Positions 6,840 to 31,011 of a DNA stretch of 32,000 nt are shown piece by piece. The DNA comes from Breznakia sp. PF5-3 (GTDB lineage Bacteria > Bacillota_I > Bacilli_A > Erysipelotrichales > Erysipelotrichaceae). The DNA is taken from positions 1-32,000 of the forward strand of contig NZ_JAQFIQ010000007.1 of assembly GCF_029504745.1 (NCBI RefSeq). Direction: 5' to 3'. A model generated the notes under the pieces. The model did no database searches. It saw only the letters and a list, made by a program, of their open reading frames with translations, and was not told the DNA's origin. How positions within the stretch are numbered: position 1 is the first letter of the stretch; every line of letters starts with the position of its first letter. The translations under genes and the position numbers were made by a program.

Positions 6840-6865
6840 ATATGTCCTCCTTTATTTTGATACCT

Positions 6866-6874
6866 ATTATATCA
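6866..6874 (-). promoter_or_regulatory. extended -10 promoter for aconitase
   Basis: The minus strand reads TGaTATAAT ~20 nt upstream of the RBS. It sits inside the ATTAT-atc-ATAAT palindrome. Confidence 0.45.
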
Positions 6875-6903
6875 TAATTTTTCTTAGTTTTTTTAATGAA
6901 TAA

Positions 6904-6912
6904 TGGTATAAT
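6904..6912 (+). promoter_or_regulatory. extended -10 promoter for citrate synthase/icd
   Basis: TGgTATAAT ~30 nt upstream of ATG 6944. It is embedded in the perfect palindrome ATGGTATA-atc-TATACCAT (6903-6921). Confidence 0.45.
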
Positions 6913-6943
6913 CTATACCATATAAACTTTGGGGGTGAGAAAA

Positions 6944-8284: not shown

Positions 8285-8286
8285 AA

Positions 8287-9285
8287 ATGAAAAACATTAC
8301 AGTATTAAAAGGCGATGGAATCGGTCCTGAAATTTGTAAAGAAGTTGTTCGTATTTTAGAAGTATTAAATTTAGATTTAAACTTTGAACTTCATGAAGTT
8401 GGTGAAGCATGTTATGAAAAAACTGGAGCTTTGATTCCTCAAAGTGTATTTGATTCTATTGAAAAAAATAAAGTGGTATTAAAAGCACCAATTACAACAC
8501 CTATTGGTAAAGGGTTTAAAAGTTTAAATGTACAATTACGTAATAAATATGATTTGTATGCGAATATTCGCCCTGCAAAATCAATGCCAAATGTGAAAAC
8601 ACCATTTGAAAATATTGATATTATTACATTTAGAGAGAACACAGAAGATTTATACATTGGACAAGAAGAAATGATTGATGAAAATACAGTTCATGCGATT
8701 AAGCTTATTACAAGAAAAGCAAGTGAGAGAATTATTCGTGCAGCCTTTGAATATGCAATTAAAAATAATCGCAAGAAGGTAACTTGTGTTCATAAAGCAA
8801 ACATTTTGAAGCAAAGTGATGGAATGTTCTTACGTATCTTTAATGAAATAAAAGCAGATTATCCACAAATTGAAGCAAACGATATGATTGTTGATAATAC
8901 ATGTATGCAATTGGTTATGAGGCCAGAGCAATTTGATATTATGGTTATGCCAAACTTATATGGTGATATCGTATCGGATCTAACAAGTGGTTTAATTGGT
9001 GGGTTAGGGTTATTGCCTAGTAGTAATTTAGGAGATGACTTTGCAATGTTTGAAGCAGTACATGGAAGTGCTCCAGATATTGCAGGACAAAACAAAGCAA
9101 ATCCAATCGCTTTATTATTAGCAGCATGTTTAATGTTGGATTATTTGGGATATGAAAAAGAGGCAGGTGCAATCCGCAATGCAATCGATGAAGTCTTGAT
9201 TGAAAATAAAGTCAGAACGGCTGATTTAGGTGGTACAAGCTCAACAACTGAATTTGGGGATGCGATTATCGCAAAACTAGCATAA
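8287..9285 (+). CDS. icd: NAD-dependent isocitrate dehydrogenase (isocitrate/isopropylmalate dehydrogenase family)
   Basis: 332 aa. LYANIRP, FRENTEDLYIG and NLYGDIVSD are beta-decarboxylating dehydrogenase motifs. The gene starts 2 nt after the citrate synthase stop, with the RBS inside it. Confidence 0.8.
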   Translation: MKNITVLKGDGIGPEICKEVVRILEVLNLDLNFELHEVGEACYEKTGALIPQSVFDSIEKNKVVLKAPITTPIGKGFKSLNVQLRNKYDLYANIRPAKSMPNVKTPFENIDIITFRENTEDLYIGQEEMIDENTVHAIKLITRKASERIIRAAFEYAIKNNRKKVTCVHKANILKQSDGMFLRIFNEIKADYPQIEANDMIVDNTCMQLVMRPEQFDIMVMPNLYGDIVSDLTSGLIGGLGLLPSSNLGDDFAMFEAVHGSAPDIAGQNKANPIALLLAACLMLDYLGYEKEAGAIRNAIDEVLIENKVRTADLGGTSSTTEFGDAIIAKLA

Positions 9286-18104: not shown

Positions 18105-18758
18105 ATGAGCTCTGAGTGGTCAGATTTGAATAAAACCATGCAAAATCAAATAAAGAAAAAAGATTCTTTTAATGATGGGATTAATACATTGTTAGAATTA
18201 CGCAAGGGGTTGTTGAAGGAAATTTTCAAGTTCAAAGACACTATAAAGAGAAATGATTTTGATAAGATACCATTTATAAATGCAAAGGGATATCACAACA
18301 AGACGATTGTTTATTCACTTTGGCATATTTTTCGGATTGAGGATATCGTTACACATACGTTAATCCAAAAAGATAAGCAAATTTTCTTTGATAAGGATTA
18401 TCAAAAACGAATAAACTCTCCTATCATTACTACTGGAAATGAATTAGTAAAAGAAGAAATTTCTGATTTTTCCAAAGACCTTAACTTGGATGAACTCTAT
18501 CAATATATAGTTGATGTTAACGAAAGTACGATAGAATTGTTAAGAAATTTGTCTTATTCTGATTTGAAAATCCAAATGAGTAATATGGATAAAGAACAAA
18601 TAAAAGAGTTAAAGGTTGTAAGTGATGATGAAAATGCTGCTTGGCTGATTGATTACTGGTGCAAAAAAAATATTAAAGGATTAATTACAATGCCTTTATC
18701 AAGGCATTGGATAATGCATGTTGATGCCTGTTCCAGAATCTTAAAGAAAGTATTGTGA
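18105..18758 (+). CDS. hypothetical protein, possibly DinB/YfiT-like helical bundle
   Basis: 217 aa with RBS GAGGAGG. The His-containing helices LWHIFRIEDIVTH and SRHWIMHVDAC are reminiscent of DinB_2, but the assignment is weak. Confidence 0.35.
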   Translation: MSSEWSDLNKTMQNQIKKKDSFNDGINTLLELRKGLLKEIFKFKDTIKRNDFDKIPFINAKGYHNKTIVYSLWHIFRIEDIVTHTLIQKDKQIFFDKDYQKRINSPIITTGNELVKEEISDFSKDLNLDELYQYIVDVNESTIELLRNLSYSDLKIQMSNMDKEQIKELKVVSDDENAAWLIDYWCKKNIKGLITMPLSRHWIMHVDACSRILKKVL

Positions 18759-18823: not shown

Positions 18824-18852
18824 TTGACAACGCTTACATTATAAGGTATTCT
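18824..18852 (+). promoter_or_regulatory. putative sigma-A promoter of the PTS/peptidase locus
   Basis: TTGACA (18824-18829), a 17-nt spacer, then TATTCT (weak -10). Confidence 0.45.
18825..18838 (+). promoter_or_regulatory. cre (CcpA catabolite-responsive element) overlapping the -35 box
   Basis: TGACAACGCTTACA fits TGWNANCGNTNWCA at every constrained position. Confidence 0.6.
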
Positions 18853-18873
18853 AACATTGAAGATTGATCGTTA

Positions 18874-18918
18874 GGGTTGTGATTTTTATTTAATAATAGA
18901 AAGCAAGGCCTATCATCC
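18874..18918 (+). promoter_or_regulatory. putative RAT (ribonucleic antiterminator) 1
   Basis: GGGTTGTGA...AAAGCAAGGCCTATCATCC resembles GGATTGTTACTG...CAGGCAAAACC with an enlarged loop. Its 3' half overlaps the 5' arm of the terminator, the classic LicT/SacY arrangement. Confidence 0.4.
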
Positions 18919-18955
18919 AATTAGTAATTGGTTTGATGGTGCATTGCTTTTTTTT
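18901..18955 (+). terminator. leader terminator (attenuator) upstream of EIIA-licT
   Basis: A long imperfect hairpin, AAGCAAGGCCTATCATCCAATTA / TAATTGGTTTGATGGTGCATTGCTT, followed by T8. It lies 25 nt before the EIIA RBS. Confidence 0.75.
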
Positions 18956-18979
18956 GTTAAAAAACAGAGGAGGTAAATA

Positions 18980-19426
18980 ATGGAAATATTATATAGCCCA
19001 GTCAAAGGGTGTGCGATTAAATTAGAAAAGGTGAATGATGAAATGTTTTCACAAAAAATGCTAGGTGATGGAATTGCAGTTATACCAGAAAATGATGAGT
19101 TTGCTTCACCGATTGATGGAGAGATAACACTTGTTTATGAAACGCAACACGCAATTGCAATAAAAACAGAAAAGGATACAGAAATATTGATTCATATCGG
19201 AATCGACACAATGAATTTAGAAGGAGAACCCTTTGACACAAAAGTAAAAGTTGGGGATAAAGTAAAAAAGGGCGATTTATTAACACGAATTAATTGGAGT
19301 ATCATTTTGAAAAAGGGGTTAGAAAAGGTGGTGCCAATTATTGTGTTAAACAAAGAAGTGCAAACAGTGGATAACAATGAAGAAATAGAGATAGAAGTAG
19401 GAGATCCATTGTTAAGTATTGAATAG
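18980..19426 (+). CDS. PTS EIIA component, glucose family
   Basis: 148 aa. MFSQKMLGDGIAV.P, HAIAIKT and ILIHIGIDT (the two conserved His) are EIIA-Glc signatures. Confidence 0.9.
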   Translation: MEILYSPVKGCAIKLEKVNDEMFSQKMLGDGIAVIPENDEFASPIDGEITLVYETQHAIAIKTEKDTEILIHIGIDTMNLEGEPFDTKVKVGDKVKKGDLLTRINWSIILKKGLEKVVPIIVLNKEVQTVDNNEEIEIEVGDPLLSIE

Positions 19427-19447
19427 ATTATATGGAGGTAGCCAAAG

Positions 19448-20278
19448 ATGATTGCAAAGAAAGTTTATAACAACAATATAGTTATGGCAATTGATGAAGA
19501 TAGTAACGAAGTAATTCTTGCGGGAAAAGGGGTTGCCTATGGATTGAAAAAAGGGGATACGATAGATAAACATAGAGTTGAAAAGAGGTTTGAATTAAAA
19601 AAGGATACAAGAACTCGGTTTGGAGAATTGATTCAAGATATACCATTAGATTATGTCATTATTTCAGAAGAAATAATTGCTTATATAAAAGAAAAAAGTG
19701 GTAAGAAAATCAATGATAGTATTTATGTAACATTAACTGATCATATAGTTAATTCTATCGAAAGAATTAAAATGGGAATAGATTTTGATATGACTTTATT
19801 GGTAAATGTAAAAACGTTATATAAAGAAGAATTCAAATTAGCATTGCACGCAGTAGATATGTTAAGAGATTATTTTAAAATTACGTTTAGTGATGATGAA
19901 GCATATTTTATTACTTTGCATATTGTAAATTCTCAGTTTGAATCCAACATGATGGAAATGTATACAATAACATCTATATTAGAAAATATTACGAGTATTG
20001 TTAATCAAAACTTTGATATTGATATAGAGGATAATTATAATTATGATCGTTTTATGACACATTGTAGATTTTTTATTCAAAGGATTATTAATCAAGAACA
20101 CTTTGAGCAAAATAGTGCTTTGAATTATACATTAATGGAATCCGCAAAAGAAAAACTACCAAAGCAAATGGAGTGTGTGAACGAGATTGCTACATATGTT
20201 GAAAAAAAATATGGATATGTAACCAGTGAAGATGAAAAGATGTATTTACTTTTTCATTTAGGAAGATTAACAGAATAG
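19448..20278 (+). CDS. licT: BglG/LicT/SacY family transcription antiterminator
   Basis: 276 aa. The N-terminal CAT RNA-binding domain (KVYNNNIVMA.D....EVILAGKGVAYG.KKGD.ID) is followed by two PRD-like halves (TLTDHI.., FITLHI..). Confidence 0.9.
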   Translation: MIAKKVYNNNIVMAIDEDSNEVILAGKGVAYGLKKGDTIDKHRVEKRFELKKDTRTRFGELIQDIPLDYVIISEEIIAYIKEKSGKKINDSIYVTLTDHIVNSIERIKMGIDFDMTLLVNVKTLYKEEFKLALHAVDMLRDYFKITFSDDEAYFITLHIVNSQFESNMMEMYTITSILENITSIVNQNFDIDIEDNYNYDRFMTHCRFFIQRIINQEHFEQNSALNYTLMESAKEKLPKQMECVNEIATYVEKKYGYVTSEDEKMYLLFHLGRLTE

Positions 20279-20484
20279 AATAGATAATAAACGTATCTTG
20301 GGGTTGTTTGTTTTACTAATTTACCAAATGCGACAATGTATTTAAATACATGGGAATACGTTATTATACATCAAGCAAAAAAAAGGATATATGTAATAGG
20401 AATTGTTTGGTGATTTAAAAATTAGTAGAAAGGGATATGATGAAAGTCCAAGTCATCATACTAGGTTTGAAATAAAATAAAATT

Positions 20485-20514
20485 GGATGGTTACAGTAAG
20501 GCTGGCCAAACCTC
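20485..20514 (+). promoter_or_regulatory. RAT 2 upstream of the EIIBC gene
   Basis: GGATGGTTACAGTAAGGCTGGCCAAACCTC versus the B. subtilis-type RAT GGATTGTTACTGcattcgCAGGCAAAACC. Both conserved halves are present. Confidence 0.6.
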
Positions 20515-20553
20515 TTAATAGTTTTTAATTAATTATTGAGGAGGAAATGAAGA

Positions 20554-21981
20554 ATGAAATATATTGAAATGTCAAAAGTTGTGTTAGAGAATGTTGGGGG
20601 ATTAGAAAATATAAAGTTTGTTGAAAGATGTGCCACACGTTTGCGAATTCACTTCTTTAAAAAATCAAAAGTAGATCTAGAAGCTATAAAAAAAGCAGAA
20701 GGTGTTATGGGGGTAGTTGAAAAAGGGGGACAAATTCAATTAATTATAGGTCCAACAGTTCAAGAAGCTTATACTGATTTTTTAGAAGTATCAGGATTTA
20801 AATTATCAGGTAATGAATCTCCTGTTTCAGATGATAATGAGGAAGAAGAGAAGAACTTCTCTTATTATGTAAATGCATTTGGTAGTTTTGCAGCAGGTGT
20901 ATTTATGCCGATTATTCCAGCTTTGGTTACAGGGGGATTAATTTTATCAATTAAAAATTTATTAGTTAATTACATGGGATTTGGTGTAGACTCTGGAACT
21001 GCACAGATTATGTTAGCAATTTTCAGTGCGGGTTTCTCTATGTTACCAGTTTGGATAGGATATACATTATCAAGTAAATTGAAGATGGAACCTATTATGG
21101 GAGCATTTTTAGGAGCAGTTCTTGTAAGTGGGTCAATAAGTGGAGTTGAAGGACTAGATTTTTTTGGTATTTCAGTTCCGGCAGTTGCTTATGAAAGTAG
21201 TGTAATGCCAATTGTATTTGGTGTTGTTTTTATGTATTTTGTGAATAAATTACTTGTTAAAATCATTCCTGATATGGTAGTTTTCTTTTTAAAACCACTG
21301 TTAACAATGGCAATTGTTGTGCCAGTAACATTAATTGTTTTGGGACCAATTGGAACTGAATTGAGTGGTGCGGTTGGAAACTTTATGGAAGCTTTTATGG
21401 GAGTTGCTGGATGGCTAGCAGTCCCTGTAATTGCAGCTTTATACCCATATATGGTTATGCTTGGATTGGATAAGGCAATTACAGTTATTATGATTGAATC
21501 GATTGCTACAACAGGAGCAGATAATTGGGTGTTAGTAACTGGACTTGTATCAAATTTATGTATTGGTGCAGCAGCATTGGCAGTCGCATTGCATGTAAGA
21601 GATAGAAAACAAAAAGGGCTGGTTGCATCTTTTGGTGTAACTGCACTTTGTGGAGTTACTGAACCTGCATTTTATGGTTCTTTGATTATGCGTCCAAAAT
21701 GCCTTGTTGGAGTTGCAACAGGAGCAATTGCTGGTGGGTTAGTAGCTGGTATCTTTGGACTTCAAAACTACGTTGTAGGAGGTTGCCCAGGATTATTGAC
21801 CGCTTTATTCTTCTTGCCAGAAGATGGAAGTATGGGAAACTTTATTTTATTTTGGATAGTATGTGCAATTTCGATTGTTGTATCGTTTGTTGCAACAACA
21901 TTTATTTTAAAAAGAATGAATAAAGTAAGTGAAACGGAAATTGATATGGTAGGAGAAACTGAAACAGTTACTGCAAAATAA
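20554..21981 (+). CDS. PTS EIIBC component, glucose/beta-glucoside family
   Basis: 475 aa. The EIIB phospho-Cys motif ERCATRLRIHF is followed by a polytopic EIIC domain. GAGGAGG RBS 9 nt upstream. Confidence 0.9.
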   Translation: MKYIEMSKVVLENVGGLENIKFVERCATRLRIHFFKKSKVDLEAIKKAEGVMGVVEKGGQIQLIIGPTVQEAYTDFLEVSGFKLSGNESPVSDDNEEEEKNFSYYVNAFGSFAAGVFMPIIPALVTGGLILSIKNLLVNYMGFGVDSGTAQIMLAIFSAGFSMLPVWIGYTLSSKLKMEPIMGAFLGAVLVSGSISGVEGLDFFGISVPAVAYESSVMPIVFGVVFMYFVNKLLVKIIPDMVVFFLKPLLTMAIVVPVTLIVLGPIGTELSGAVGNFMEAFMGVAGWLAVPVIAALYPYMVMLGLDKAITVIMIESIATTGADNWVLVTGLVSNLCIGAAALAVALHVRDRKQKGLVASFGVTALCGVTEPAFYGSLIMRPKCLVGVATGAIAGGLVAGIFGLQNYVVGGCPGLLTALFFLPEDGSMGNFILFWIVCAISIVVSFVATTFILKRMNKVSETEIDMVGETETVTAK

Positions 21982-21986
21982 TTCGC

Positions 21987-22020
21987 AAAGACTCCTACTA
22001 TAATAGGAGTCTTTGTTTCT
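21987..22020 (+). terminator. intra-locus hairpin / leaky terminator between EIIBC and the peptidase genes
   Basis: AAAGACTCCTA-ctataa-TAGGAGTCTTT followed by GTTTCT (interrupted U tract). Confidence 0.55.
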
Positions 22021-22047
22021 ATAAAAAGCAGACAGAGAGGACTAAAT

Positions 22048-23487
22048 ATGAAAGTTTTAGTTGGAGAATTTGTCACCGAGTCTAATTCAAATGTTCCAAA
22101 TATGTGTGAACTTAAGGATTATGATATAAGCTTTGGTGATGAATGTATAAGAAAAATGAAAATTAGGGATGTATTTGATAAAAATAATATCAAATTGATA
22201 CCTTCTATATATGCAAATGCAGGCGCATCAGGAGTTATAGAAAAAGCTAGTTTTCAATATATTGAAAACTACTTATTAAAAAAGATAAAAAACCATATCC
22301 ATGAAATTGATGGAATTTTTCTAATGCTTCATGGTGCAAGCGAGGTGCAAGGAATAGGTTCAGGAGATCATCATATTTTGAAAGAAATTCGGAGATTGGT
22401 AGGTGAATATATGCCAGTTGCTGTTGTATGTGATCCACATGGAAATCTTGAAAAAGAATATGTAGAAGCAATACAAATTCTTAGAAGTTATCGTGAATCT
22501 CCACACATTGATGCAGATAAAACAATGCATATTGTAGCCCAAATGCTTTGTGACCTTTTAAAAAACCGTAGATCAATGCATGCAATTTATAGAAAATTGC
22601 CATTAATATTGGGTGGTGAGCAAAGTGTGTCAGAGGATGAGCCTGTACATTCAATCAATACATATTTAAATACATTGGAAAAAGATGAAAAAATCATGAG
22701 CGCATCATGGCATGTAGGCTATTTACGACATGATTGCGAAGTTGCAGGTTGTGGAATCGTGATTGTTCCAAGTGACGATAAACATCAAAAATATGCAAAT
22801 CAAAAAGCAGATGAATTAGCAGCTTATGTCTGGAGCAAAAGATATGATTTTCATTATACAGGATTGACGATGTCGTTAGAAGAATCATTAAAATATGCGT
22901 ATGCATTTAAGGAGAAACCATTTTTTATTACTGATTCAGGTGACAATGTGACTTCGGGAGCAACAGGATGGAATACCTACTTATTGGAGAATGTCTTAAA
23001 GACCAATACAGTGAATAAAAAGATTCTTTTCGCTTCTATTTGTGATCCTGATACCTATAATCAATTATCAAAAGTTGAAGATTCAATAATTGATATTGAA
23101 CTTGGTGTTGGTTATGACGAGTTAAGTAAACCAATTCGAGGGAAGGTGAAGATTGTAGGAAATGGAGAACTTTTTGGTTTCATGATGCATGATCCTGATT
23201 CTATTTTCGGACAGTGTGTAACGGCTAATTTCGTGGGTACGAACATTGATGTAATTATTGCAAATACAAATTGGGCGTTGTGTGAACTACAGCAATTTAA
23301 GAAGATTGGAATTGATGTAAAAGATTACGATATTGTAGTTGTGAAACAAGGGTATATATTTCCAGAATTGAAAGCAATTGGTGCGGGGAATGTGATGGCA
23401 TTGACGGATGGTGCAACTCCACAAGATACAGCATCATTAAAATTCAAACGTATTATGAGACCAATGTTTCCGATTGACAAGATATAA
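22048..23487 (+). CDS. M81 family metallopeptidase (MlrC-like; DUF1485 + MlrC C-terminal domain), paralog 1
   Basis: 479 aa. The MKVLVGEFVTESNSNVP N-terminus (compare MlrC G.F.HETNTF), LHGA, CDPHGN, SWHVGY and DSGDN blocks are typical of the MlrC/DUF1485 family. Confidence 0.75.
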   Translation: MKVLVGEFVTESNSNVPNMCELKDYDISFGDECIRKMKIRDVFDKNNIKLIPSIYANAGASGVIEKASFQYIENYLLKKIKNHIHEIDGIFLMLHGASEVQGIGSGDHHILKEIRRLVGEYMPVAVVCDPHGNLEKEYVEAIQILRSYRESPHIDADKTMHIVAQMLCDLLKNRRSMHAIYRKLPLILGGEQSVSEDEPVHSINTYLNTLEKDEKIMSASWHVGYLRHDCEVAGCGIVIVPSDDKHQKYANQKADELAAYVWSKRYDFHYTGLTMSLEESLKYAYAFKEKPFFITDSGDNVTSGATGWNTYLLENVLKTNTVNKKILFASICDPDTYNQLSKVEDSIIDIELGVGYDELSKPIRGKVKIVGNGELFGFMMHDPDSIFGQCVTANFVGTNIDVIIANTNWALCELQQFKKIGIDVKDYDIVVVKQGYIFPELKAIGAGNVMALTDGATPQDTASLKFKRIMRPMFPIDKI

Positions 23488-23501
23488 GGAGGTATAGAAC
23501 A

Positions 23502-24950
23502 ATGAAAATATTAGTTGCAAAGTTTGTTTTAGAAGCTAATGCCAATGTACCAATGATGAGCGATTTAGAAAACACAGCTCTTTCTTTTGGTGAAGAGGCC
23601 CTTACTCATATGCAATTAGGAGATGTTTTTCGTGATGAAGATATAGAATTGATTCCTGTGATTTGCGCAGATGCAGGATGTAGTGGAGTGATGAAAAAGA
23701 AGGCTTTCAATTATATTGAACAGAGTATTTTAGATGCAATCAAAGAAAATCGTAATGAAATTGATGCTATTTATCTTCATTTACATGGAGCAAGTGAAAT
23801 TGAAGATTTAGAAGCTGGATCAGGGGAACATCATTTATTGAAGGAAGTACGAAAAATAGTAGGTCCTTATATGCCGATTGGAATTTCTTGTGATCCTCAC
23901 GGAAATCTTTGTAAGGAATATGTAGAGAGCGCAAACATTATCCGTTCTTTTCGTGAAGCCCCACATACAGATATTCCAGAAACTGTACAATTTGTTTGTC
24001 GTGAATTAGTGAAATTAGTTCGTGAACGAAGAAGGATTACTCCTGTTTATCGAAAATTACCTTTAATTTTAGGCGGAGAACAAACCGTTTCTTTAGATGA
24101 ACCAGTGAAATCAATTAATTGTTTTATGGATGCTTTAGAAGAGGATGAAAGAATTTTAAGTGCATCATGGCATGTTGGGTATATCCGTCATGATACGCCA
24201 GTCGCAGGTTGTGGGATTGTGGTTATACCATGCGATGATAAATATCGTGATTATGCAAATGAAAAGGCAGATGAGCTAGCATCCTTTGTTTTTGATCGTC
24301 GTCATGAATTTCATTACACGGGAATTACTAAACAACCTGAAGAAGCATTGAATATGGCTTTAAACTTTGAAGGGAGACCAGTTGTGATATCCGATTCAGG
24401 TGATAATGTAACATCAGGTTCTATGGGAGTGAATACATTTATTCTTGAACAAGTGATAAGTGTAGAGAAGCTTCAAAAAAAAGTTTTATTTGCATCTATC
24501 CATGATGTGAACACATATCAACAACTAATGAGTTATTCAATTGGTTCTATAGTAACTATTAAGGTAGGAATGGGAATAGATGAATTGTCAAAACCGGTGG
24601 AATTAAAAGTAACGGTTAAATATAAAGGTCGACAAGAAGGAACGCGGATGTATGGTGAAGATGGTGATTATGGAGGATTGGTTAGAGTGTCGGTGGTTAA
24701 TAAACCAATTGATATTGTCATATGCGAAAATAATCATTCCTTTGTTGAGATTCATCAAATTGAAGCATGTGGTTGTAGTTTAGATGATTATGATATTTTG
24801 ATAGTGAAACAGGGATATATTCATCCTGAACTTTTAGAAGCTGGAAAGCTTTGTATTATGTCTTTGACTAAAGGTGCAACACTTCAGGATACATCGGCAT
24901 TAGATTTTAAATTAATCATGCGCCCAATGTTTCCGATCGATAATATATAG
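23502..24950 (+). CDS. M81 family metallopeptidase (MlrC-like), paralog 2
   Basis: 482 aa with RBS AAGGAGG. Collinear with paralog 1 over the full length, sharing roughly half the positions by eye and the same LHGA / CDPHGN / SWHVGY / DSGDNVTSG / MRPMFPID blocks. Confidence 0.75.
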   Translation: MKILVAKFVLEANANVPMMSDLENTALSFGEEALTHMQLGDVFRDEDIELIPVICADAGCSGVMKKKAFNYIEQSILDAIKENRNEIDAIYLHLHGASEIEDLEAGSGEHHLLKEVRKIVGPYMPIGISCDPHGNLCKEYVESANIIRSFREAPHTDIPETVQFVCRELVKLVRERRRITPVYRKLPLILGGEQTVSLDEPVKSINCFMDALEEDERILSASWHVGYIRHDTPVAGCGIVVIPCDDKYRDYANEKADELASFVFDRRHEFHYTGITKQPEEALNMALNFEGRPVVISDSGDNVTSGSMGVNTFILEQVISVEKLQKKVLFASIHDVNTYQQLMSYSIGSIVTIKVGMGIDELSKPVELKVTVKYKGRQEGTRMYGEDGDYGGLVRVSVVNKPIDIVICENNHSFVEIHQIEACGCSLDDYDILIVKQGYIHPELLEAGKLCIMSLTKGATLQDTSALDFKLIMRPMFPIDNI

Positions 24951-24959
24951 GAGATGAAA

Positions 24960-26336
24960 ATGATTGAACTTAAAAGAGTAAAACGGCCAGAGGTTGAGTA
25001 TAATATTCAACCAGTAGAATTGAGTGATGATACGATAAAAGAACGTAAAAATAAAATATTAAAGGGAATGAAATGTGATGATATTGATGTAATCATCATT
25101 TATGCAGATTTAGAACATGGTTCCAATTTTGAATATCTATGTGGATTTTTGCCAAGATTTGAAGAAGCATTACTTGTATTGCATAGTAATGGAGAAGCCT
25201 ATATGGTATTAGGCAATGAGAATTTGAATAAAGCCTCAAAGGCACGCATTAAAGTAAATGCTATTCATATGCCACATTTTTCATTACCTAATCAACCGAT
25301 GGATAATACTAGAAAAGTATCTCAGATATTAGCAGAATGTAAAATAAATCAAGCTAAAAAAATAGGAATTGTAGGTTGGAAGAATTTCACAAATACGATA
25401 GAAGATTACAGTCAATTGTTTGATATTCCATACTTTGTGATGGATGGATTAAAGGAAGTATGTCCTAATGCAAAATTTGTGAATGGAACATATTTATTTA
25501 TTGGTGAAGAAGGAGCTCGTAATACGAATAATGCAAATGAAATTGCACATTATGAATTTGGAGCTACTTTGGCTGGAAATTGTATGTTGGAAGCATTGGC
25601 AGAGTTTGAAATTGGAAAAAGTGAAATGGAGATAGCATCAAGACTTTCATCTTATGGACAAAGGCATAGTGTTGTTACCATTATGGCTGCAGGAGAAAGG
25701 TTTATAAATGCAAATATGTATCCAAGTTCTAATGAGGTAAAACTGGGTGATAAAATATCTATTACAACTGGTTACAAAGGAGGACTTCAAAGCCGTGGTG
25801 GATATGCTGTTAGTGATGAAGAACAACTTCCAATTAATGAAAGAGATTATGTAAATAGAGTTGCTAAGCCATATTTTAAAGCAGTTGTCACATGGTTAGA
25901 AATGATAAAAATTGGAATAGATGGTACAACATTATATAGTGCAATCAATACGGTTTTACCAAAGGATCAATATGGATGGAGTTTAAATCCAGGTCATCTA
26001 TGTGCTGATGAAGAATGGCTATCTTCACCTGTATATCCAAATTCAAAAGAAGAAATCAAAAGTGGAATGTTATTTCAGATTGATATCATTCCGTCAATAA
26101 AAGGTTATGGAGGAGCAAGTTGTGAGAGTGGTGTTGTTCTTGCAGATGCTAATTTACGTGCTGAAATAAAAAGTAAATATCCACAAATGTGGCAACGATT
26201 TGTGAACAGAAGAAAATTTATAATGGAAGAATTGGGAATTGAATTAAATGAAGAAGTATTACCAACAAGTATAGCAACAGCATACTTTACTCCTTATCTT
26301 TTAAACAAAGATAAAGTATTAGCAGTAATAAAATAA
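24960..26336 (+). CDS. M24/creatinase-fold (pita-bread) protein, aminopeptidase-P-like with atypical metal site
   Basis: The track start 24954 abuts AGGAG, and ATG 24960 has 6-nt spacing. The N-terminal creatinase-N-like region (DIDVIIIYA...) is followed by NANEIAHYEFGATLAGNCMLEALAEFEIGKSEMEIASRL, then GD.ISI and PGH, typical of the M24 fold. Confidence 0.55.
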   Translation: MIELKRVKRPEVEYNIQPVELSDDTIKERKNKILKGMKCDDIDVIIIYADLEHGSNFEYLCGFLPRFEEALLVLHSNGEAYMVLGNENLNKASKARIKVNAIHMPHFSLPNQPMDNTRKVSQILAECKINQAKKIGIVGWKNFTNTIEDYSQLFDIPYFVMDGLKEVCPNAKFVNGTYLFIGEEGARNTNNANEIAHYEFGATLAGNCMLEALAEFEIGKSEMEIASRLSSYGQRHSVVTIMAAGERFINANMYPSSNEVKLGDKISITTGYKGGLQSRGGYAVSDEEQLPINERDYVNRVAKPYFKAVVTWLEMIKIGIDGTTLYSAINTVLPKDQYGWSLNPGHLCADEEWLSSPVYPNSKEEIKSGMLFQIDIIPSIKGYGGASCESGVVLADANLRAEIKSKYPQMWQRFVNRRKFIMEELGIELNEEVLPTSIATAYFTPYLLNKDKVLAVIK

Positions 26337-26354
26337 ATGAAAGAGAGGCAAATA

Positions 26355-27773
26355 ATGCGTAAAGATAAATTTTTATGGGGTAGTGCAACTGCGGCATATC
26401 AATGTGAGGGTGCATGGAATGAAGATGGAAAAGGATTAGGGGAGTGGGATGTTTTCTCTCATGAAAGTCCACTCAATATTAATGGAGCAACAGGAGATAT
26501 TGCCTGTGATTTTTATCATCGTTATAAAGAAGATATTGATATGTTAGTAGAAGGTGGACAAAATACATATCGCTTTTCTATTGCTTGGACTAGGATTATT
26601 CCTGAAGGAGTTGGACAAGTAAATCAAAAGGGAATAGATTTTTATAACCGTGTAATAGATTATTGTTTAGAGAAAGGTGTAGAACCTAATATAACATTAT
26701 TTCACTATGACCTTCCAGAGCCGATTGCAAAGGCGGATGGTTTTGGGAATCGAAAAACAGTAGATGCCTTTGTAGAGTATGCAAAAGTATGTTTTACAGC
26801 ATTTGGTGATCGTGTTAATTTATGGGCAACGATTAATGAACCTAGATATTATGCATATTGTACAAATATGGTAGGGAATTATCCACCTAATCATAAAGTT
26901 GATTTTGATCGTTTTTATCGTGTTTTGTATCATGAAATATTAGCAAGCGCAAAAGCAGTAAAGGTATTTCATGATATGAAATTGAAAGGACGTATTGCCA
27001 TTGTTCATGATAATAGCAATGCAGAAATTGCTCCTGGAACTAAAGAACCACAAAAGATTAAAATGATGGCTGATCTATTTTACACTGATTTAGTATTGGA
27101 AACTTCAATCACAGGAAAAATTCCTGGCGCACTGATACCAATGTTAAGAGAAAATAATATTGATACATCGTTTATAAAGTTTGAAGATGCTATTGATTTC
27201 GCAAATGGAAAAATTGATTATTTAGGATTAAATGTATATAATCGTGTTTACTTAACAGATTACAGCGAGGGTGAAACAGAAGTATTCCATAACAATAAAG
27301 GGAAAGGTTCTAAATCAAAGGAAGGGATTCGTATTAAAGACTGGTTTGAAACAACAGATGATATCCATACAAAACGTAATTTATGGGGAAGAGAAATATA
27401 TCCTAAATGTATTTATAATGCACTTGTAGAAATTAAAGAGCTTTATGGAGATATACCTGTTTACATTACGGAAAACGGACACGGAATGTACGAAACACCT
27501 GATGAGAATGGGTATGTTCAAGATGATGAGAGAATTGAAATGATGCAAGGTTACATTGAGTATATGCTAAAAGCTCGTGAAGATGGATGTAATGTCTGTG
27601 GTTATTATGCTTGGTCCACAATGGATTTGTATAGCTGGGTTAATGGATATGAAAAACGATATGGATTTGTGAGGATTGATTTTGATGATCCAAAATTACC
27701 AAGAATTCCTAAGAAGAGTTATTACTGGTTTAAAAATTTAATTCAGGATTTTTATGATCATCACAATGAATAA
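26355..27773 (+). CDS. GH1 6-phospho-beta-glucosidase
   Basis: ATG 26355 follows AGAGAGG; the alternative ATG 26337 overlaps the upstream stop. Contains FLWGSATAAYQCEGA, the acid/base TINEPR, and the nucleophile YITENG. SWVNGYEKRYGFV is the phosphate-binding S/K/Y signature of the phospho-glycosidase subgroup. Confidence 0.9.
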   Translation: MRKDKFLWGSATAAYQCEGAWNEDGKGLGEWDVFSHESPLNINGATGDIACDFYHRYKEDIDMLVEGGQNTYRFSIAWTRIIPEGVGQVNQKGIDFYNRVIDYCLEKGVEPNITLFHYDLPEPIAKADGFGNRKTVDAFVEYAKVCFTAFGDRVNLWATINEPRYYAYCTNMVGNYPPNHKVDFDRFYRVLYHEILASAKAVKVFHDMKLKGRIAIVHDNSNAEIAPGTKEPQKIKMMADLFYTDLVLETSITGKIPGALIPMLRENNIDTSFIKFEDAIDFANGKIDYLGLNVYNRVYLTDYSEGETEVFHNNKGKGSKSKEGIRIKDWFETTDDIHTKRNLWGREIYPKCIYNALVEIKELYGDIPVYITENGHGMYETPDENGYVQDDERIEMMQGYIEYMLKAREDGCNVCGYYAWSTMDLYSWVNGYEKRYGFVRIDFDDPKLPRIPKKSYYWFKNLIQDFYDHHNE

Positions 27774-27783
27774 AAGTATTTGA

Positions 27784-27810
27784 AAAGCAGAAATCATTTT
27801 CTGCTTTTTG
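27784..27810 (+). terminator. rho-independent terminator closing the locus
   Basis: AAAGCAGAAA-tcat-TTTCTGCTTT followed by TTTG. Confidence 0.8.
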
Positions 27811-27899: not shown

Positions 27900-28445
27900 A
27901 TGAAACGATGTAATTGGGCAAACGATGAAGCGATGCATGAATATCATGATAAAGAGTGGGGAAAACCTGTATATGATGATCATGTGTTATTTGAATTTTT
28001 AGTTTTAGAGGGAATGCAAGCAGGGTTATCTTGGGATACGATTTTAAAAAGAAGAGAAACCATGAGAATAGCATTTGATAACTTTGATCCAAAGAAAATA
28101 AAAGCTTATGGTGAAGCAAAAGTTGAACAATTGATGCAAGATAAAGGTGTTATCAGACATCGATTAAAATTGGAATCTTTGAAGATTAATGCTGAGCATT
28201 TTATTGAGATTCAAGAAGAGTATGGAAGCTTTCATAAATTTTTATGGTCGTTTGTAGATAATAAGCCAATTGTAAATAGCATTGTATCGATGGAAGATAC
28301 ACCAGTGGTGTCTAAAGAGGCAGAAGCATTAAGTAAAGCATTACGAAAAAGAGGGTTTAAGTTTGTTGGTCCTACAATCTGTTATGCTTATATGCAGGCG
28401 ATGGGATTGGTAAACGATCATGAAAATGATTGCGATTGGAAATAA
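27900..28445 (+). CDS. tag: DNA-3-methyladenine glycosylase I
   Basis: 181 aa. RCNWANDEAMHEYHDKEWGKPVYDD and LEGMQAGLSW are Tag signatures. Confidence 0.9.
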   Translation: MKRCNWANDEAMHEYHDKEWGKPVYDDHVLFEFLVLEGMQAGLSWDTILKRRETMRIAFDNFDPKKIKAYGEAKVEQLMQDKGVIRHRLKLESLKINAEHFIEIQEEYGSFHKFLWSFVDNKPIVNSIVSMEDTPVVSKEAEALSKALRKRGFKFVGPTICYAYMQAMGLVNDHENDCDWK

Positions 28446-28494: not shown

Positions 28495-28587
28495 TATTAG
28501 TTATTATCATTGTTTTCTTTTGATATGGGGAAGTTGTGCATGCTATAAAAACCCTGTATGATGAAGATAAGAAAATGAGGTGTGTTT

Positions 28588-31011
28588 ATGGAAATACGTT
28601 TAAGTGGTGTAAGAGAGAAAAATTTAAAAAATATTTCTTTAACAATTCCCAAAAATAAATTGGTGCTCTTTACTGGTGTATCAGGATCGGGGAAGACATC
28701 GTTGGTAATTGATACATTATATCAAGAAAGTCAAAGACAGTATTTGGAAGCAATTGGATATCAAGGAATTCAAAAACCAGATATTGACTATATTCGTAAT
28801 ACATCACCTGCAGTTGTAATCACGCAAACATCAGCAAACCGTAATCCGCGATCTTCAGTAGGAACGCAAACTAATATTTATACTGATTTACGAATGATAT
28901 ATGAGAAATTAGGAAAACGGAAGTGTCCGAATTGTGGGAATGATATCTATGCATCAAAATGTAAAGAGGAAGTGGAATTTCATGATGGAGATTTTACAGT
29001 TTATATGTACTGTAATATTTGTCAGCATAAAATGCATAAATTAACACGTTCTTATTTTTCTTATAATACCAAAGAAGGAGCATGTCCTACCTGTCAGGGG
29101 CTAGGAGAAGTTTTAGAGATTGATTGGGAATCTGTTATAGATGAATCATTAACGCTTGAGGAAGGTGCGATAAAGCTTTGGAAGCATAAATATAAAGACT
29201 ATCAAATAACTTCTTTTTATAATGCTTTATCACATTTTGAAATACCTTATGAAAAGCATATGAAAGTAAAAAACTTTAGTATCTTACAAAAACAGATATT
29301 GCAATATGGAATTCATGATAAAGATATGCCAGAACGTTATAAAGAAATGGCATTCCCTAAAACCGTAGAAGGTGGGAAGTATGAAGGAATCGCTTCTTAT
29401 TTGTGGAAGAAAGTAAAAGAAGAAGCTTCACGTAATACGTATAAAAGCATGTATTTTAAAAATATGCCTTGTCCAGCGTGTCATGGAGAGCGTTTGCAGC
29501 CGTTGAGTCGTGAAGTAAGTGTTTTGGATACACGACTTCCTGAACTTGTTGAATTATCGATGGAACGCTTGTATGAGTGGCTAAAGAACTTAGAAACAAT
29601 GATTAGTGAAGAAGCCTATGAACTTAGTAAGAATTATATAGAGGATGCAAAGGCAAAGCTTCAAAGAATTATGAAAGTTGGACTTGGGTATTTAACTATT
29701 GATCAACAAATGATTACCTTATCTGGTGGGGAAGCACAAAGGATTAAAATCGCAGCAACCTTAGATTCAGATATCACAGGGATTTTATATATTTTAGATG
29801 AACCAACCGTAGGCTTACATGCAAAAGATACAGATGGAATGATTGCGATACTAAAACAACTTCGTGATTTAGGTAATACCGTTATCGTTGTAGAGCATGA
29901 TATCGATGTAATGAAAGCAGCTGATATAATTATTGACTTAGGACCTGGTGCTGGAGAACATGGTGGTAAGATTATTGGCAAAGGAACTTATCAAGAATTA
30001 CAAGAACAACCGTCATCAATTACAGGACAGTATCTAAAAAATCCAGCAGTGGTAAAGACGATTACACGCTCGCCCAACCAAGGTTGGCTACACATAAAGC
30101 ATGCACATCTACATAATCTTAAATATATTAATGTTGATATTCCTAAACATTGCTTAAGTAGTATTACGGGGGTATCAGGTTCAGGGAAATCTTCTTTAAT
30201 CTTTGGTGTTTTACATGAACAAATGCATCAAGATATGGAAGATTATGATGAAATCATAACCATTTATCATTCCCCAATCACAAGAATGAAACGTTCAAAC
30301 GTTGCAACTTATGCAGCAATCTTTACTGATTTGCGTATGCTATTTGCATCTACAAAAGAAGCTAAGGAACAAGGGTATACAAGTTCTAGTTTTTCTTTTA
30401 ATACCAAAGGGGGAAGATGTGAACATTGTGAAGGTTTAGGATATGTAGAAAGCAATATGTTGTTTTTTGAAAATATCAATGTTGTTTGTCCAGTATGTAA
30501 AGGAAAACAATACACGGATGAAGTATTAAATATAAAATGGAATGGTAAATCGATTCGTGATGTGTTACATATGGAAGTAAGTGATGCACTTCATTTTCTT
30601 AAAGTTCATAAGAAAATAAGTGAAAGATTGCAATTGTTGGAAGATGTAGGACTTGGATATTTGAAACTTGGACAATCGCTTAATACCCTTTCAGGAGGGG
30701 AAGGACAACGCTTAAAACTAGCAAGCGAGTTAATGCAAAACAAAGGAAAACAAAATCTTTATTTAATTGATGAGCCAACAACTGGACTTCACCCATTGGA
30801 TGTGGAAAAATTTATTTTATTATTGAATCGAATTGTTGATTATGGAAATACAGTAATTGTAGTAGAGCATAACCAACAAATTATAAAAGCATCCGATTGG
30901 ATAATTGATCTTGGACCTTATGGTGGAGAACGAGGTGGAGAGCTTATCGCTACTGGAACGCCAGAGGATATTAAGAAAAATAAGAAATCAATCACAGGAC
31001 GATATTTATAG
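28588..31011 (+). CDS. UvrA paralog (class II, lacks the UvrB-binding domain)
   Basis: ATG 28588 follows AUGAGG; the GTG 28582 extension is unlikely. There are two ABC modules (GVSGSGKTS / LSGGEAQR and GVSGSGKSS / LSGGEGQR). Only ~30 aa lie between CPNC and CNIC, where canonical UvrA carries its ~135-aa UvrB-binding domain. Total length is ~807 aa versus ~940. Confidence 0.8.
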   Translation: MEIRLSGVREKNLKNISLTIPKNKLVLFTGVSGSGKTSLVIDTLYQESQRQYLEAIGYQGIQKPDIDYIRNTSPAVVITQTSANRNPRSSVGTQTNIYTDLRMIYEKLGKRKCPNCGNDIYASKCKEEVEFHDGDFTVYMYCNICQHKMHKLTRSYFSYNTKEGACPTCQGLGEVLEIDWESVIDESLTLEEGAIKLWKHKYKDYQITSFYNALSHFEIPYEKHMKVKNFSILQKQILQYGIHDKDMPERYKEMAFPKTVEGGKYEGIASYLWKKVKEEASRNTYKSMYFKNMPCPACHGERLQPLSREVSVLDTRLPELVELSMERLYEWLKNLETMISEEAYELSKNYIEDAKAKLQRIMKVGLGYLTIDQQMITLSGGEAQRIKIAATLDSDITGILYILDEPTVGLHAKDTDGMIAILKQLRDLGNTVIVVEHDIDVMKAADIIIDLGPGAGEHGGKIIGKGTYQELQEQPSSITGQYLKNPAVVKTITRSPNQGWLHIKHAHLHNLKYINVDIPKHCLSSITGVSGSGKSSLIFGVLHEQMHQDMEDYDEIITIYHSPITRMKRSNVATYAAIFTDLRMLFASTKEAKEQGYTSSSFSFNTKGGRCEHCEGLGYVESNMLFFENINVVCPVCKGKQYTDEVLNIKWNGKSIRDVLHMEVSDALHFLKVHKKISERLQLLEDVGLGYLKLGQSLNTLSGGEGQRLKLASELMQNKGKQNLYLIDEPTTGLHPLDVEKFILLLNRIVDYGNTVIVVEHNQQIIKASDWIIDLGPYGGERGGELIATGTPEDIKKNKKSITGRYL

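Follow-up and report, generated by a model that had tools for sequence, protein, structure and literature searches.

What substrate would call for three peptidase-fold genes between the transporter and the phospho-glycosidase of a beta-glucoside-type phosphotransferase (PTS) operon? The question is raised by a co-directional set of genes at positions 18824-27810 (forward strand) of a 32,000-nt window, the whole stretch of DNA analysed here, from the insect-gut bacterium Breznakia. By ORF calls and domain searches, the order is promoter and cre-like box, leader terminator, EIIA(Glc), LicT, RAT, EIIBC, two M81 genes, an M24-fold gene and GH1. An earlier note on this DNA had proposed a substrate that is both glycosidic and amide-bonded, with glycopeptides, glycocin-like compounds and muropeptides among its candidates; its ORFs, domains and gene order were confirmed by domain annotation, and its gap sizes (14 nt, 3 or 9 nt, and 0 or 18 nt, all at most 18 nt from the first M81 gene onward) were reproduced. 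With modest confidence, we lean towards a single operon for a small beta-glycoside with an amide-bonded partner, for instance a sugar-bearing amino acid or short peptide.

The sugar-handling parts are complete and their motifs intact, which favours this reading. The EIIA of glucose/beta-glucoside type (18980-19426) matched PTS_EIIA_1 (PF00358, 1.5e-47) and, above its cut-off, TIGR00830, and both His motifs were found. It is followed by a LicT/BglG-family antiterminator (19448-20278) with a CAT_RBD domain, two PRD domains and all four PRD histidines, and by an EIIBC (20554-21981; PTS_EIIB and PTS_EIIC) of the Bgl/Scr branch of the glucose superfamily, in which Cys26 sits in ERCATRLR. The last gene encodes a GH1 6-phospho-beta-glycosidase (26337-27773; Glyco_hydro_1, 1.7e-136) with the motifs SWVNGYEKRYG, NEP and TENG. 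Its catalytic and phosphate-binding residues, including the S..K.Y signature from which a phosphorylated substrate had been deduced, are invariant in 47 distinct orthologues, with variation in some flanks.

Regulatory elements frame these genes. A sigma-70-type promoter (TTGACA-17-TATTCT, 18824-18852) overlaps a cre-like box, TGACAACGCTTACA (18825-18838), which by inspection matches TGWAANCGNTNWCA at 13 of 14 positions; both are kept in B. pachnodae, as is the leader terminator hairpin with its U8 run 5' of EIIA (18889-18961; leader fold -33.8 kcal/mol, z -3.9). Of the combined RAT and terminator previously assigned to this leader, the terminator was confirmed and the RAT-like sequence before it was not: no match to the B. 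subtilis RAT was found with up to three mismatches allowed, and inspection gave no confirmation. The RAT before EIIBC, GGATGGTTACAGTAAGGCTGGCCAAACC (20485-20512), is convincing: compared with the RAT of B. subtilis bglP, inspection reveals a compensatory change from CUG/CAG to CAG/CUG, and in B. pachnodae a single base differs. It is followed by an AU-rich hairpin (20511-20544) that buries the EIIBC Shine-Dalgarno sequence GAGGAGG (20538-20544) and is likewise kept in B. pachnodae (20470-20560 folds at -16.3 kcal/mol); as this hairpin has no U-run, no canonical terminator follows the RAT. A search of the entire window against Rfam at gathering thresholds gave no matches.

The junction between EIIBC and the first M81 gene bears on the operon's unity. 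A 13-bp hairpin with a U-rich tail (21985-22016; -19.1 kcal/mol, z -4.8) is probably a partial terminator or an mRNA-stabilising element. Structural counterparts occur in B. pachnodae (-25.8) and C. innocuum, with none in Lacrimispora, where the gap is 17 nt, or in the enterobacteria. Such a strong hairpin could uncouple the expression of the downstream genes, which counts against a one-operon reading. From its end (22016) to the start of M81-A there are only 31 nt, too few for a promoter, and in other hosts the gap between EIIBC and M81 is 17-32 nt; both features would favour co-transcription from EIIBC into M81-A. The operon is closed by an intrinsic terminator (27781-27810; -14.7 kcal/mol, z -4.5), which had been taken for the only strong one; the leader (-33.8) and junction (-19.1) hairpins both exceed it.

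The same hairpin, in parting EIIBC from the M81 genes, lends something to the simplest explanation, an ordinary aryl-beta-glucoside/cellobiose operon with unrelated peptidase genes inserted by chance, as does the fact that LicT, EIIBC and GH1 alone make up the canonical module. This explanation is contradicted by the neighbourhood analysis, and we regard it as the least credible of those considered. EIIBC, one to six M81 genes and the M24-like gene, usually with an orthologous GH1, recur as a cassette in Erysipelotrichales, Lachnospiraceae, Oscillospirales and Clostridium, and also in Enterococcus pallens, in a gut organism of high GC content (56%) and in three genera of enterobacteria. The cassette was seen in Dubosiella, C. 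innocuum, C. tertium and Caproiciproducens, in the genomes of 19 further species, and in both sequenced Breznakia species examined; in Enterobacter, Buttiauxella and Serratia it occupies three different chromosomal sites. None of 5,426 complete E. coli genomes contains it. Of 49 metagenome loci centred on M81 and no shorter than 10 kb, a redundant set with many members from the same gut species, 45 had an orthologue of EIIBC, GH1 or the M24-like gene beside M81, and in 33 all three were present. Furthermore, the base composition of the window shows no anomaly. Because the cassette recurs across phyla in rearranged orders and under different regulators (LicT, RpiR or DeoR), chance insertion does not account for the peptidase-fold genes, and the proposal that they function with the PTS and GH1 is supported by an association conserved across orders and phyla. 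GH1 itself, however, does not belong to the minimal unit in the enterobacteria, where the cassette consists of DeoR, EIIBC, M81 and M24-like genes. No further recurring catabolic enzyme was found in the cassette loci, which fits products that are ordinary metabolites.

Within the cassette, the transporter and glycosidase appear specialised. The best NCBIfam match of EIIBC is the beta-glucoside-specific TIGR01995 (362 bits against a cut-off of 614.7), LicT reaches 279.9 bits against a cut-off of 300 for NF046042, and since EIIBC, LicT and GH1 all fall below equivalog cut-offs, they are best regarded as distinct subfamilies. Orthologues of EIIBC within the cassette reach about 420-890 bits at most loci and about 315 at one; the remaining Bgl-type EIIs of the fetched loci reach about 125-270 bits, and judged by such bit scores EIIBC and GH1 form dedicated subfamilies of their own. 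The cassette-specific GH1 subfamily is nearer to LacG/BGL than to BglA-type enzymes.

These properties also bear on muropeptide or amino-sugar scavenging, in which the PTS would import a peptidoglycan fragment, the M81 enzymes would strip the stem peptide and GH1 would cleave the disaccharide. A weak relation of EIIBC to MurP (2.6e-30), RpiR/MurR-type regulators in some cassettes, the cleavage by MlrC adjacent to D-Glu, and the GH20 and RpiR genes that accompany M81 in rhizobia are consistent with this route. Nevertheless, it is very improbable, because the enzyme is a GH1: every residue that binds a glycone with a free 2-OH (Q, H, NEP, TENG) is retained, and we know of no GH1 that hydrolyses HexNAc or MurNAc glycosides. 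In addition, EIIBC scores 362 bits against beta-glucoside transporters and 106 against MurP, and the MurQ etherase and MupG are absent from all cassettes.

In the proposed pathway, amide bonds of the substrate would be cut by the M81 proteins. M81-A (22048-23487; DUF1485, PF07364, 1e-66; MlrC_C, PF07171) and M81-B (23502-24950; DUF1485, 1e-66; MlrC_C) are paralogues with 53% identity, and A-type and B-type orthologous groups recur in other two-copy loci. Residues E11, H95, D129, H131 and H153 of M81-A are invariant and correspond to E56, H150, D184, H186 and H208 of MlrC; both copies, as the earlier interpretation demanded, carry this zinc-site set, which is invariant across homologues. The AF2 model of M81-A matches 3iuu and 7ylq with a TM of about 0.7. 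MlrC is an amide hydrolase (PMC12474180), and a literature search found no paper on any other M81 enzyme. As an independent parallel for the sugar-amide reading, in Rhizobiaceae and Pantoea more distant M81 genes adjoin genes for GH20, RpiR, MFS or ROK proteins; RidA, an imine deaminase, lies beside M81 and GH20 in rhizobia, and distant M81 genes are also found with a MenC-family gene, dipeptide-epimerase-like, and with ABC transporters of Opp/Dpp type.

The third peptidase-fold protein is less conventional. Public annotation starts it at 24960, and an in-frame ATG lies at 24954 (24954/24960-26336); it matches Creatinase_N (1.2e-5) and, below the Pfam cut-off, Peptidase_M24 (2.6e-4). Foldseek neighbours of its AF2 model (pLDDT 78.9) are prolidases, creatinase, ectoine hydrolase and DddP. 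Its ligand positions hold T/S, a variable residue, H346, D375 and E389; the first Asp position is Thr or Ser in all 84 M24-like sequences and the second is not conserved. With both M24 Asp metal ligands missing, it fails as a canonical M24 peptidase and may be no peptidase at all. Of the earlier interpretation, the association of PTS, GH1 and peptidase-fold genes and the M81 residues were supported; a canonical M24 enzyme and, for the enterobacteria, GH1 as part of the minimal unit were not. Moreover, 50 of 80 genome loci of close M24-like homologues (53-63% identical) have no PTS or M81 neighbour, and in a tree of the M24-like family the members linked to the cassette do not form a single clade (they are polyphyletic); both points count against the sugar-amide operon.

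The non-canonical site leads to an unlikely though not negligible explanation, in which the peptidase-fold proteins would perform chemistry such as deacylation, ring opening or lyase reactions on a beta-glucoside that is decorated but lacks any peptide or amino-acid moiety. Creatinase, the ectoine hydrolase DoeA/EutD and the DMSP lyase DddP share the M24-like fold, and MlrC is the sole M81 enzyme characterised in the literature found. Against this stand the full zinc-site set of the M81 copies, the hydrolysis of amides by MlrC itself (PMC12474180) and the Opp/Dpp-type transporters and MenC-family gene beside distant M81 genes.

In a second cassette the M24-like gene stands with an M20 gene of carbamoylase type and an EIICB resembling MalX, and this pairing with another PTS and another amidase may be an independent parallel for sugar-amide catabolism. 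However, the M20 partners fall in the TIGR01879 carbamoylase/ureidohydrolase family (320-395 bits against a cut-off of 204), and one lies within the Holdemania M81 array; by family assignment they would be ureido-hydrolases and not ordinary peptidases, which counts against our reading. Furthermore, neither this cassette nor the enterobacterial one contains a glycosidase, which suits a glycosidase-free linkage better than an O-glycoside. These findings make an N-glycosyl amide or ureide pathway a serious alternative, although its probability remains low. The substrate would be an N-acyl-beta-glycosylamine, for example glucosylurea ('glucose ureide') or a glycosyl-asparagine-type compound; once the PTS had phosphorylated it, M81, the M24-like protein or the carbamoylase would cut at the C(=O)-N bond, on its acyl side, like glycosylasparaginase, the glycosylamine-6-phosphate would decay spontaneously to hexose-6-phosphate and ammonia, and GH1 would serve only disaccharide forms or accompanying O-glycosides. 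The fold shared with creatinase, a urea-releasing amidinohydrolase, and the rhizobial RidA agree with this pathway. C. innocuum carries the cassette, and among gut bacteria it alone has been reported to cleave the bond between sugar and ureide (PMC12046600; PMC9942572); this link is circumstantial, as the species has many other loci. Against the pathway, nearly all Bacillota cassettes have a dedicated, co-evolving GH1, a ureide alone would hardly call for as many as six M81 paralogues, and the abundance of N-glycosyl amides in nature is uncertain.

For the sugar-amide operon, the predicted substrate is most likely a small beta-glycoside bearing amide bonds. Gene identities, phosphorylation and catalytic motifs, regulatory elements and co-conservation are direct observations, from which we infer the substrate class, amidase action on phosphorylated conjugates and the following order of steps. 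EIIA and the dedicated Bgl-type EIIBC would take up the compound and phosphorylate its hexose at C6. The M81 zinc amidases, whose one to six paralogues presumably differ in side-chain preference, would cleave amide bonds beside the phosphorylated glycosyl residue; GH1 would then cut the 6-phospho-beta-glycosidic bond, releasing hexose-6-phosphate into glycolysis, and the creatinase/prolidase-fold enzyme would process the leftover N-substituted amide or dipeptide. LicT and the RAT would provide substrate induction, and cre/CcpA would provide repression, with RpiR or DeoR as sugar-phosphate sensors in place of LicT in other hosts. Since many gut bacteria and some enterobacteria share the cassette, it probably marks an undescribed pathway for sugars bound to amide-linked partners; a literature search, in line with the earlier note, found no described pathway of this architecture.

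Compared with B. subtilis licT-bglPH and E. coli bglGFB, the Breznakia operon shares LicT/BglG with a RAT, a Bgl-type EII, GH1 and cre control. It differs in the three amidase-fold genes between transporter and glycosidase, in a separate, first-placed EIIA, in the sub-cut-off NCBIfam scores of EIIBC, LicT and GH1, and in a RAT followed by a Shine-Dalgarno-sequestering hairpin and not by a U-tailed terminator. With microcystinase MlrC (MEROPS M81; PDB 7ylq), the M81 proteins share the DUF1485 and MlrC_C domains, the fold (TM about 0.7) and the Glu/His/Asp/His/His zinc site, at 16-19% identity to MlrC and 3iuu in Foldseek alignments and 53-65 bits against the MlrC model (cut-off 999); they are encoded in a sugar PTS operon of anaerobic Bacillota from the gut, whereas MlrC belongs to the mlrABCD toxin-degradation cluster. 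The MurP/MurQ/MupG system likewise combines a glucose-family EIIBC, an RpiR-type regulator and a phospho-glycosidase, but in the cassette GH1 replaces MupG, an etherase is lacking, and EIIBC stands much nearer to Bgl transporters.

PTS operons with peptidase genes have precedents in E. coli ypdDEFGH, frvABXR and sgc, which resemble the Breznakia locus in their embedded peptidase-fold genes. These have fructose-type PTS and M42 peptidases, with no M81, GH1 or LicT; ypdDEFGH carries the M42 YpdE and the M24 YpdF, and 5cnx, an E. coli Xaa-Pro aminopeptidase structure that is presumably YpdF, resembles the M24-like protein in fold at only 16% identity. The logic of the proposed pathway would parallel that of the Gfr/Frl fructoselysine/glucoselysine PTS, in which a phosphorylated sugar-amino-acid conjugate yields hexose phosphate and amino acid in the cytoplasm. 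Those systems use mannose-family PTS and SIS-domain deglycases on Amadori ketoamines, unlike the Bgl-type PTS, GH1 and metallo-amidases of Breznakia; the likeness is one of logic. Finally, creatinase and the ectoine EutD/EutE pairs also join a creatinase/prolidase-fold hydrolase to a zinc amidase; the cassette partners are instead of M81 or M20 carbamoylase type, the active-site residues differ, and the link of such a pair to a PTS is new.

The operon at 18824-27810, a single string of co-directional genes, encodes a Glc-type EIIA (18980-19426, +), the antiterminator LicT (19448-20278, +), a Bgl-type EIIBC (20554-21981, +), two MlrC-like metallopeptidase paralogues, M81-A (22048-23487, +) and M81-B (23502-24950, +), a Creatinase_N/M24-fold protein, hereafter M24-like (24954 or 24960 to 26336, +), and a GH1 enzyme (26337-27773, +). 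From M81-A onward the intergenic gaps measure 14, 3 or 9, and 0 or 18 nt, and base composition is even over the whole window. M81-A and the M24-like protein match proteins of Breznakia sp. PF5-3, the strain from which the window derives, with 100% identity. Because Breznakia pachnodae carries the same operon, again with tag downstream, a recent insertion of the locus in one strain is ruled out. On the sugar side, LicT matches PF03123 (2.1e-17) and, in two stretches, PF00874 in Pfam, contains all four PRD regulatory histidines, and reaches 279.9 bits against the NCBIfam LicT equivalog model, slightly below its cut-off of 300. Motif inspection found Cys26 of EIIB and both EIIA histidines intact. 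The best NCBIfam model for EIIBC is TIGR01995, whose cut-off of 614.7 bits is missed with 362 bits, so that the protein is placed in a divergent subfamily. In GH1, the Gln/His motif, the NEP acid/base, the TENG nucleophile and the S..K.Y 6-phosphate motif are all intact, and the catalytic and phosphate-binding residues are invariant in the 47 orthologues compared. Since the enzyme lies nearer to LacG/BGL-type enzymes than to BglA-type 6-phospho-beta-glucosidases and misses every NCBIfam equivalog and subfamily cut-off, the glycone may be either glucose or galactose.

Transcription of the operon is predicted to start from a TTGACA-17-TATTCT promoter (18824-18852, +) that overlaps a 13/14 cre match, both of which are kept in B. 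pachnodae. Folding of the first leader revealed a strong, U-tailed terminator (18889-18961, +); a search with the B. subtilis RAT consensus, allowing at most three mismatches, gave no match, and no RAT was confirmed in this leader. The second leader holds a convincing RAT (20485-20512, +), kept in B. pachnodae, whose stem has undergone a compensatory change when compared with that of B. subtilis bglP. Next comes an AU-rich hairpin without a U-run (20511-20544, +), also kept in B. pachnodae, which buries the EIIBC Shine-Dalgarno sequence. Unlike canonical LicT/BglG systems, the RAT before EIIBC is thus followed by a Shine-Dalgarno-pairing hairpin rather than a canonical terminator, and given this pairing LicT may act on EIIBC translation initiation. 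At gathering thresholds Rfam gave zero matches over the whole window; the RAT is covered by no Rfam family. Downstream, a 13-bp hairpin lies 3' of EIIBC (21985-22016, +; -19.1 kcal/mol) and exceeds in stability the terminator at the end of the operon (-14.7 kcal/mol); the earlier note's claim that GH1 is followed by the only strong terminator is thereby corrected. Structural counterparts occur in B. pachnodae and C. innocuum, and EIIBC and M81 are separated in Lacrimispora and Buttiauxella by 17-32 nt that hold no hairpin. Between the hairpin end and the M81-A start codon there are 31 nt, into which a promoter does not fit, and read-through from EIIBC into M81-A appears the economical reading of this arrangement.

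The genes flanking the operon were annotated as well. Directly upstream, a 217-aa ORF (18105-18758, +) is not matched by any Pfam family; in NCBIfam it shows weak similarity to a mycothiol-transferase (DinB-type) model, at 7.6e-7 and well under the cut-off. Downstream lie tag, encoding DNA-3-methyladenine glycosylase I (27900-28445, +), and an 809-aa UvrA paralogue (28582-31011, +), residues 136-809 of which match UvrA positions 247-937, the usual N-terminal third being replaced; from its sequence it looks like a class II UvrA-like protein. Further away, at 4923-9285, a cluster of genes for aconitase (minus strand), citrate synthase and isocitrate dehydrogenase makes up the oxidative branch of the TCA cycle as far as 2-oxoglutarate, as is usual in an anaerobe.

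M81-A and M81-B are 53% identical and represent two orthologous types. DUF1485 and MlrC_C exceed the Pfam gathering scores, with 225.7 and 118.4/117.1 bits, respectively. For MlrC, the zinc-site and catalytic residues have been reported as Glu56, His150, Asp184, His186 and His208 (PMC12474180); E11, H95, D129, H131 and H153, kept in both paralogues and invariant in the homologue alignment, align with these positions, E11 by motif only. An AF2 model of the M81 protein (pLDDT 79) matched only two PDB entries by Foldseek, 3iuu (E 2e-29) and MlrC itself (7ylq, E 2.5e-25). Orthology to the microcystinase MlrC was rejected, as the two proteins score 53.1 and 65 bits against the NF041767 cut-off of 999. 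The literature searched yielded nothing on M81 enzymes besides MlrC, nor on an M81 gene adjoining a PTS.

The M24-like protein adopts the two-domain creatinase/prolidase fold, consisting of Creatinase_N and a pita-bread C-terminal domain (AF2, pLDDT 78.9). Foldseek aligned the model with prolidases, Xaa-Pro aminopeptidases, creatinase, ectoine hydrolase and DddP with TMt values of 0.6-0.73 and sequence identities of 12-20%; for prolidases, creatinase and DoeA the E values are 1e-17 to 1e-12 and TMt is 0.64-0.73. NCBIfam gave zero matches. The canonical ligand set Asp, Asp, His, Glu, Glu reads here as Thr/Ser, a variable residue, His346, Asp375 and Glu389: the first Asp position is Thr/Ser in 84 of 84 family members and the second is not conserved, while His346, Asp375, Glu389, Glu351/352 and a set of N-domain polar residues are invariant in all of them. 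A canonical M24 peptidase is ruled out by these altered metal-ligand positions together with a Pfam Peptidase_M24 score of 21.3 bits, below the cut-off of 23. It is conceivable, if unlikely, that the peptidase-fold proteins perform non-peptidase chemistry.

The earlier note had proposed a functional link of the peptidase-fold genes to the PTS and treated their neighbourhood in other genomes as its key test; the link is upheld, since the cassette recurs elsewhere. Homologues of M81-A (57-74% identical) and of the M24-like protein (62-75%) sit in the same cassette, with differing gene orders and regulators: EIIA-LicT-EIIBC-M81x3-M24L-GH1 in Dubosiella, EIIA-LicT-EIIBC-M81x2-M24L-...-GH1-RpiR in C. 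innocuum, GH1-EIIBC-M81-M24L-RpiR in C. tertium, LicT-GH1-EIIBC-M81-M24L-EIIA-HPr in Caproiciproducens (M24L denoting the M24-like gene), and four M81 genes, an M20, two M81 genes and GH1 in Holdemania. In Enterobacter, Buttiauxella and Serratia, a DeoR gene stands beside EIIBC-M81-M24L without GH1, at three different chromosomal sites, and a gut organism of 56% GC has DeoR-EIIBC-M81-GH1-EIIC-DUF6198-M81-M24L. Near and distant search modes gave no match to the enterobacterial cassette in 5,426 complete E. coli genomes. Within the fetched loci, most cassette EIIBC proteins score about 420-890 bits against the window protein and other Bgl-type EII proteins about 125-270, and most cassette GH1 proteins score about 510-1040 bits as against about 50-300 for other GH1 enzymes; these gaps mark the cassette EIIBC and GH1 as dedicated subfamilies. 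An insertion of the peptidase-fold genes by chance, to which we assign the lowest likelihood of all, is contradicted by these neighbourhood data.

An alignment scan of species-representative genomes returned 405 relatives of the M24-like protein. Among the best 80 of these 405 loci, 19 belong to the M81/PTS cassette, 11 to a MalX/M20 cassette and 50 to neither. In Lactococcus, the Enterococcus avium group, Yersinia and Kluyvera, close homologues (53-63% identical) occupy unrelated genomic surroundings, and the family tree shows those members that are linked to the cassette to be polyphyletic. The M24-like link being frequent but facultative, it is M81 that serves as the cassette-specific marker. 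A scan of metagenome contigs centred on M81 offers a less biased test: in 49 loci of at least 10 kb, M81 is accompanied by an orthologous EIIBC in 39, an orthologous GH1 in 40 and an M24-like gene in 37, with at least one of the three in 45 and all three in 33, counts to be read with the redundancy of the contigs in mind, as the same gut species stands behind many of them. These loci carry 1 to 6 M81 copies each.

Several variants were also observed. Arrays in which five or six M81 paralogues stand in tandem are found among L001/L002 10001-21449 (Holdemania massiliensis), L113-L118 and L121-L127 (L-numbers denote fetched loci of homologues, with positions counted within each). In the H. massiliensis array a carbamoylase-type M20 is interposed and GH1 follows, and in L123, L126 and L127 LicT and EIIBC lie upstream of the array. 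A DUF6198/YczE-like membrane protein is encoded inside the cassette of C. innocuum (L007:12183-12887) and of the high-GC variant (L141:7257-7964) and may export a released aglycone.

The MalX/M20 loci define a second cassette, consisting of a MalX/PtsG/NagE-like EIICB, M20, an M24-like gene of a monophyletic clade, EIIA and RpiR, without a glycosidase (L044, L045, L050, L051, L055, L058, L061, L068, L076, L077 and L089; for instance L061:8351-11365 and L089:8681-11883). Its hosts are Dielma, Holdemanella, Faecalitalea, Lachnospiraceae and Oscillospiraceae. The M20 proteins of this cassette and of the Holdemania array belong to the TIGR01879 carbamoylase/allantoate-amidohydrolase family (320-395 bits, cut-off 204), a family of ureido-group hydrolases. 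In a Dielma-type variant, a gene between EIIABC and the M24-like gene (L056:8697-9962) is homologous over its full length (23% identity, E 8e-22) to a 418-aa protein of the window (583-1839, +) with a neutral-ceramidase N-terminal domain (Pfam 1.4e-20); judged by sequence, such a neutral-ceramidase-like gene can be a further amidase-fold gene joining the module.

More distant M81 proteins, 22-29% identical, come from Pantoea, Bacillus sp. F19 and rhizobia, the rhizobial ones being about 23-29% identical. In Sinorhizobium (L169, S. meliloti pSymB 515-531 kb) and on a Pararhizobium plasmid (L170), M81 is clustered with RidA, MurR/RpiR, an SDR, a GH20 beta-N-acetylhexosaminidase and an MFS transporter, along with a second M81. 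On an R. leguminosarum plasmid (L173) it accompanies RidA, RpiR, SDR, MFS, a ROK regulator and a D-TA-family PLP enzyme, with no GH20 gene within the stretch examined. The M81 neighbours are a ROK regulator, a ROK-family protein and an Opp-type ABC transporter in Pantoea, and an Opp-type ABC transporter and a MenC-family gene in Bacillus sp. F19. Given this carbohydrate-type company, the pairing of a putative M81 amidase with a sugar module recurs beyond the cassette.

From gene identities, motifs and co-conservation we infer substrate, activities and step order, and we lean towards a mechanism in which the operon degrades a small beta-glycoside whose partner is amide-bonded. EIIA and EIIBC would import this amide-bearing glycoside and phosphorylate it at C6, the M81 paralogues would cleave amide bonds around the phosphorylated glycosyl residue, GH1 would free hexose-6-phosphate, and the M24-like enzyme would hydrolyse the leftover N-substituted amide or dipeptide. 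In Breznakia, LicT/RAT and cre would exert control; in other hosts a sugar-phosphate-sensing RpiR or DeoR would do so. The cassette has no other recurrent catabolic enzyme, consistent with ordinary metabolites as products, for example amino acids, ammonia or urea. Collagen Gal-beta-hydroxylysine, plant Hyp-O-galactosides, insect tyrosine-O-glucoside, pantothenate glucoside and Glc-Asn are not discriminated by the sequence data. Glycocin import was set aside, a glycocin seeming, in our judgement, too large for a PTS permease. Scavenging of muropeptides is very improbable, as GH1 keeps its 2-OH-binding residues and neither the MurQ etherase nor MupG is present.

In the main rival reading, to which a low probability is given, the substrate is an N-glycosyl amide or ureide and would be handled differently: the amidases would hydrolyse the acyl side, the side attacked by glycosylasparaginase in its own substrate, and the resulting glycosylamine-6-phosphate would decay spontaneously. 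Such a substrate accounts for the glycosidase-free enterobacterial and MalX-type cassettes, for the carbamoylase-type partners and for the creatinase-like fold; what speaks against a role restricted to ureides is that GH1 is dedicated and that M81 is present as multiple paralogues. A circumstantial link exists to C. innocuum, a carrier of the cassette: among gut bacteria, cleavage of the bond between sugar and ureide has been reported for this species alone (PMC12046600, PMC9942572). No gene for glucose-ureide splitting was found in the literature searched, and the cassette is a candidate for the genes behind this reaction, on which a clinical breath test relies.

The cassette would give family M81 a second function and would add to the creatinase/prolidase fold a new enzyme family whose active site is non-canonical. 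Its hosts include the common gut bacteria C. innocuum, Holdemania, Dubosiella and Hungatella as well as some enterobacteria, most of the gut metagenome contigs examined in the M81-centred scan contain it, and the literature searched contained no paper addressing its nutrient. The cassette is probably the mark of a class of nutrients that current metabolic maps lack, namely sugars joined to amide-bonded partners and harvested by gut bacteria, and the LicT/RAT, RpiR and DeoR regulators could be used as biosensors for finding the inducer. The bolder proposal that the cassette constitutes an unrecognised PTS route for sugar-amide conjugates, with M81 acting on phosphorylated glycoconjugates, is put forward tentatively and with little confidence; if true, it would provide the first M81 function outside microcystin degradation.

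Altogether, parts of this design have precedents. PTS operons with embedded peptidase genes exist in E. coli (ypdDEFGH, frvABXR and sgc), for which we know of no settled role, and PTS import of sugar-amino-acid conjugates is established for fructoselysine and glucoselysine. We therefore rate the PTS glycoside operon as a known kind, and the conserved, uncharacterised module of putative amidases within it as the new part.
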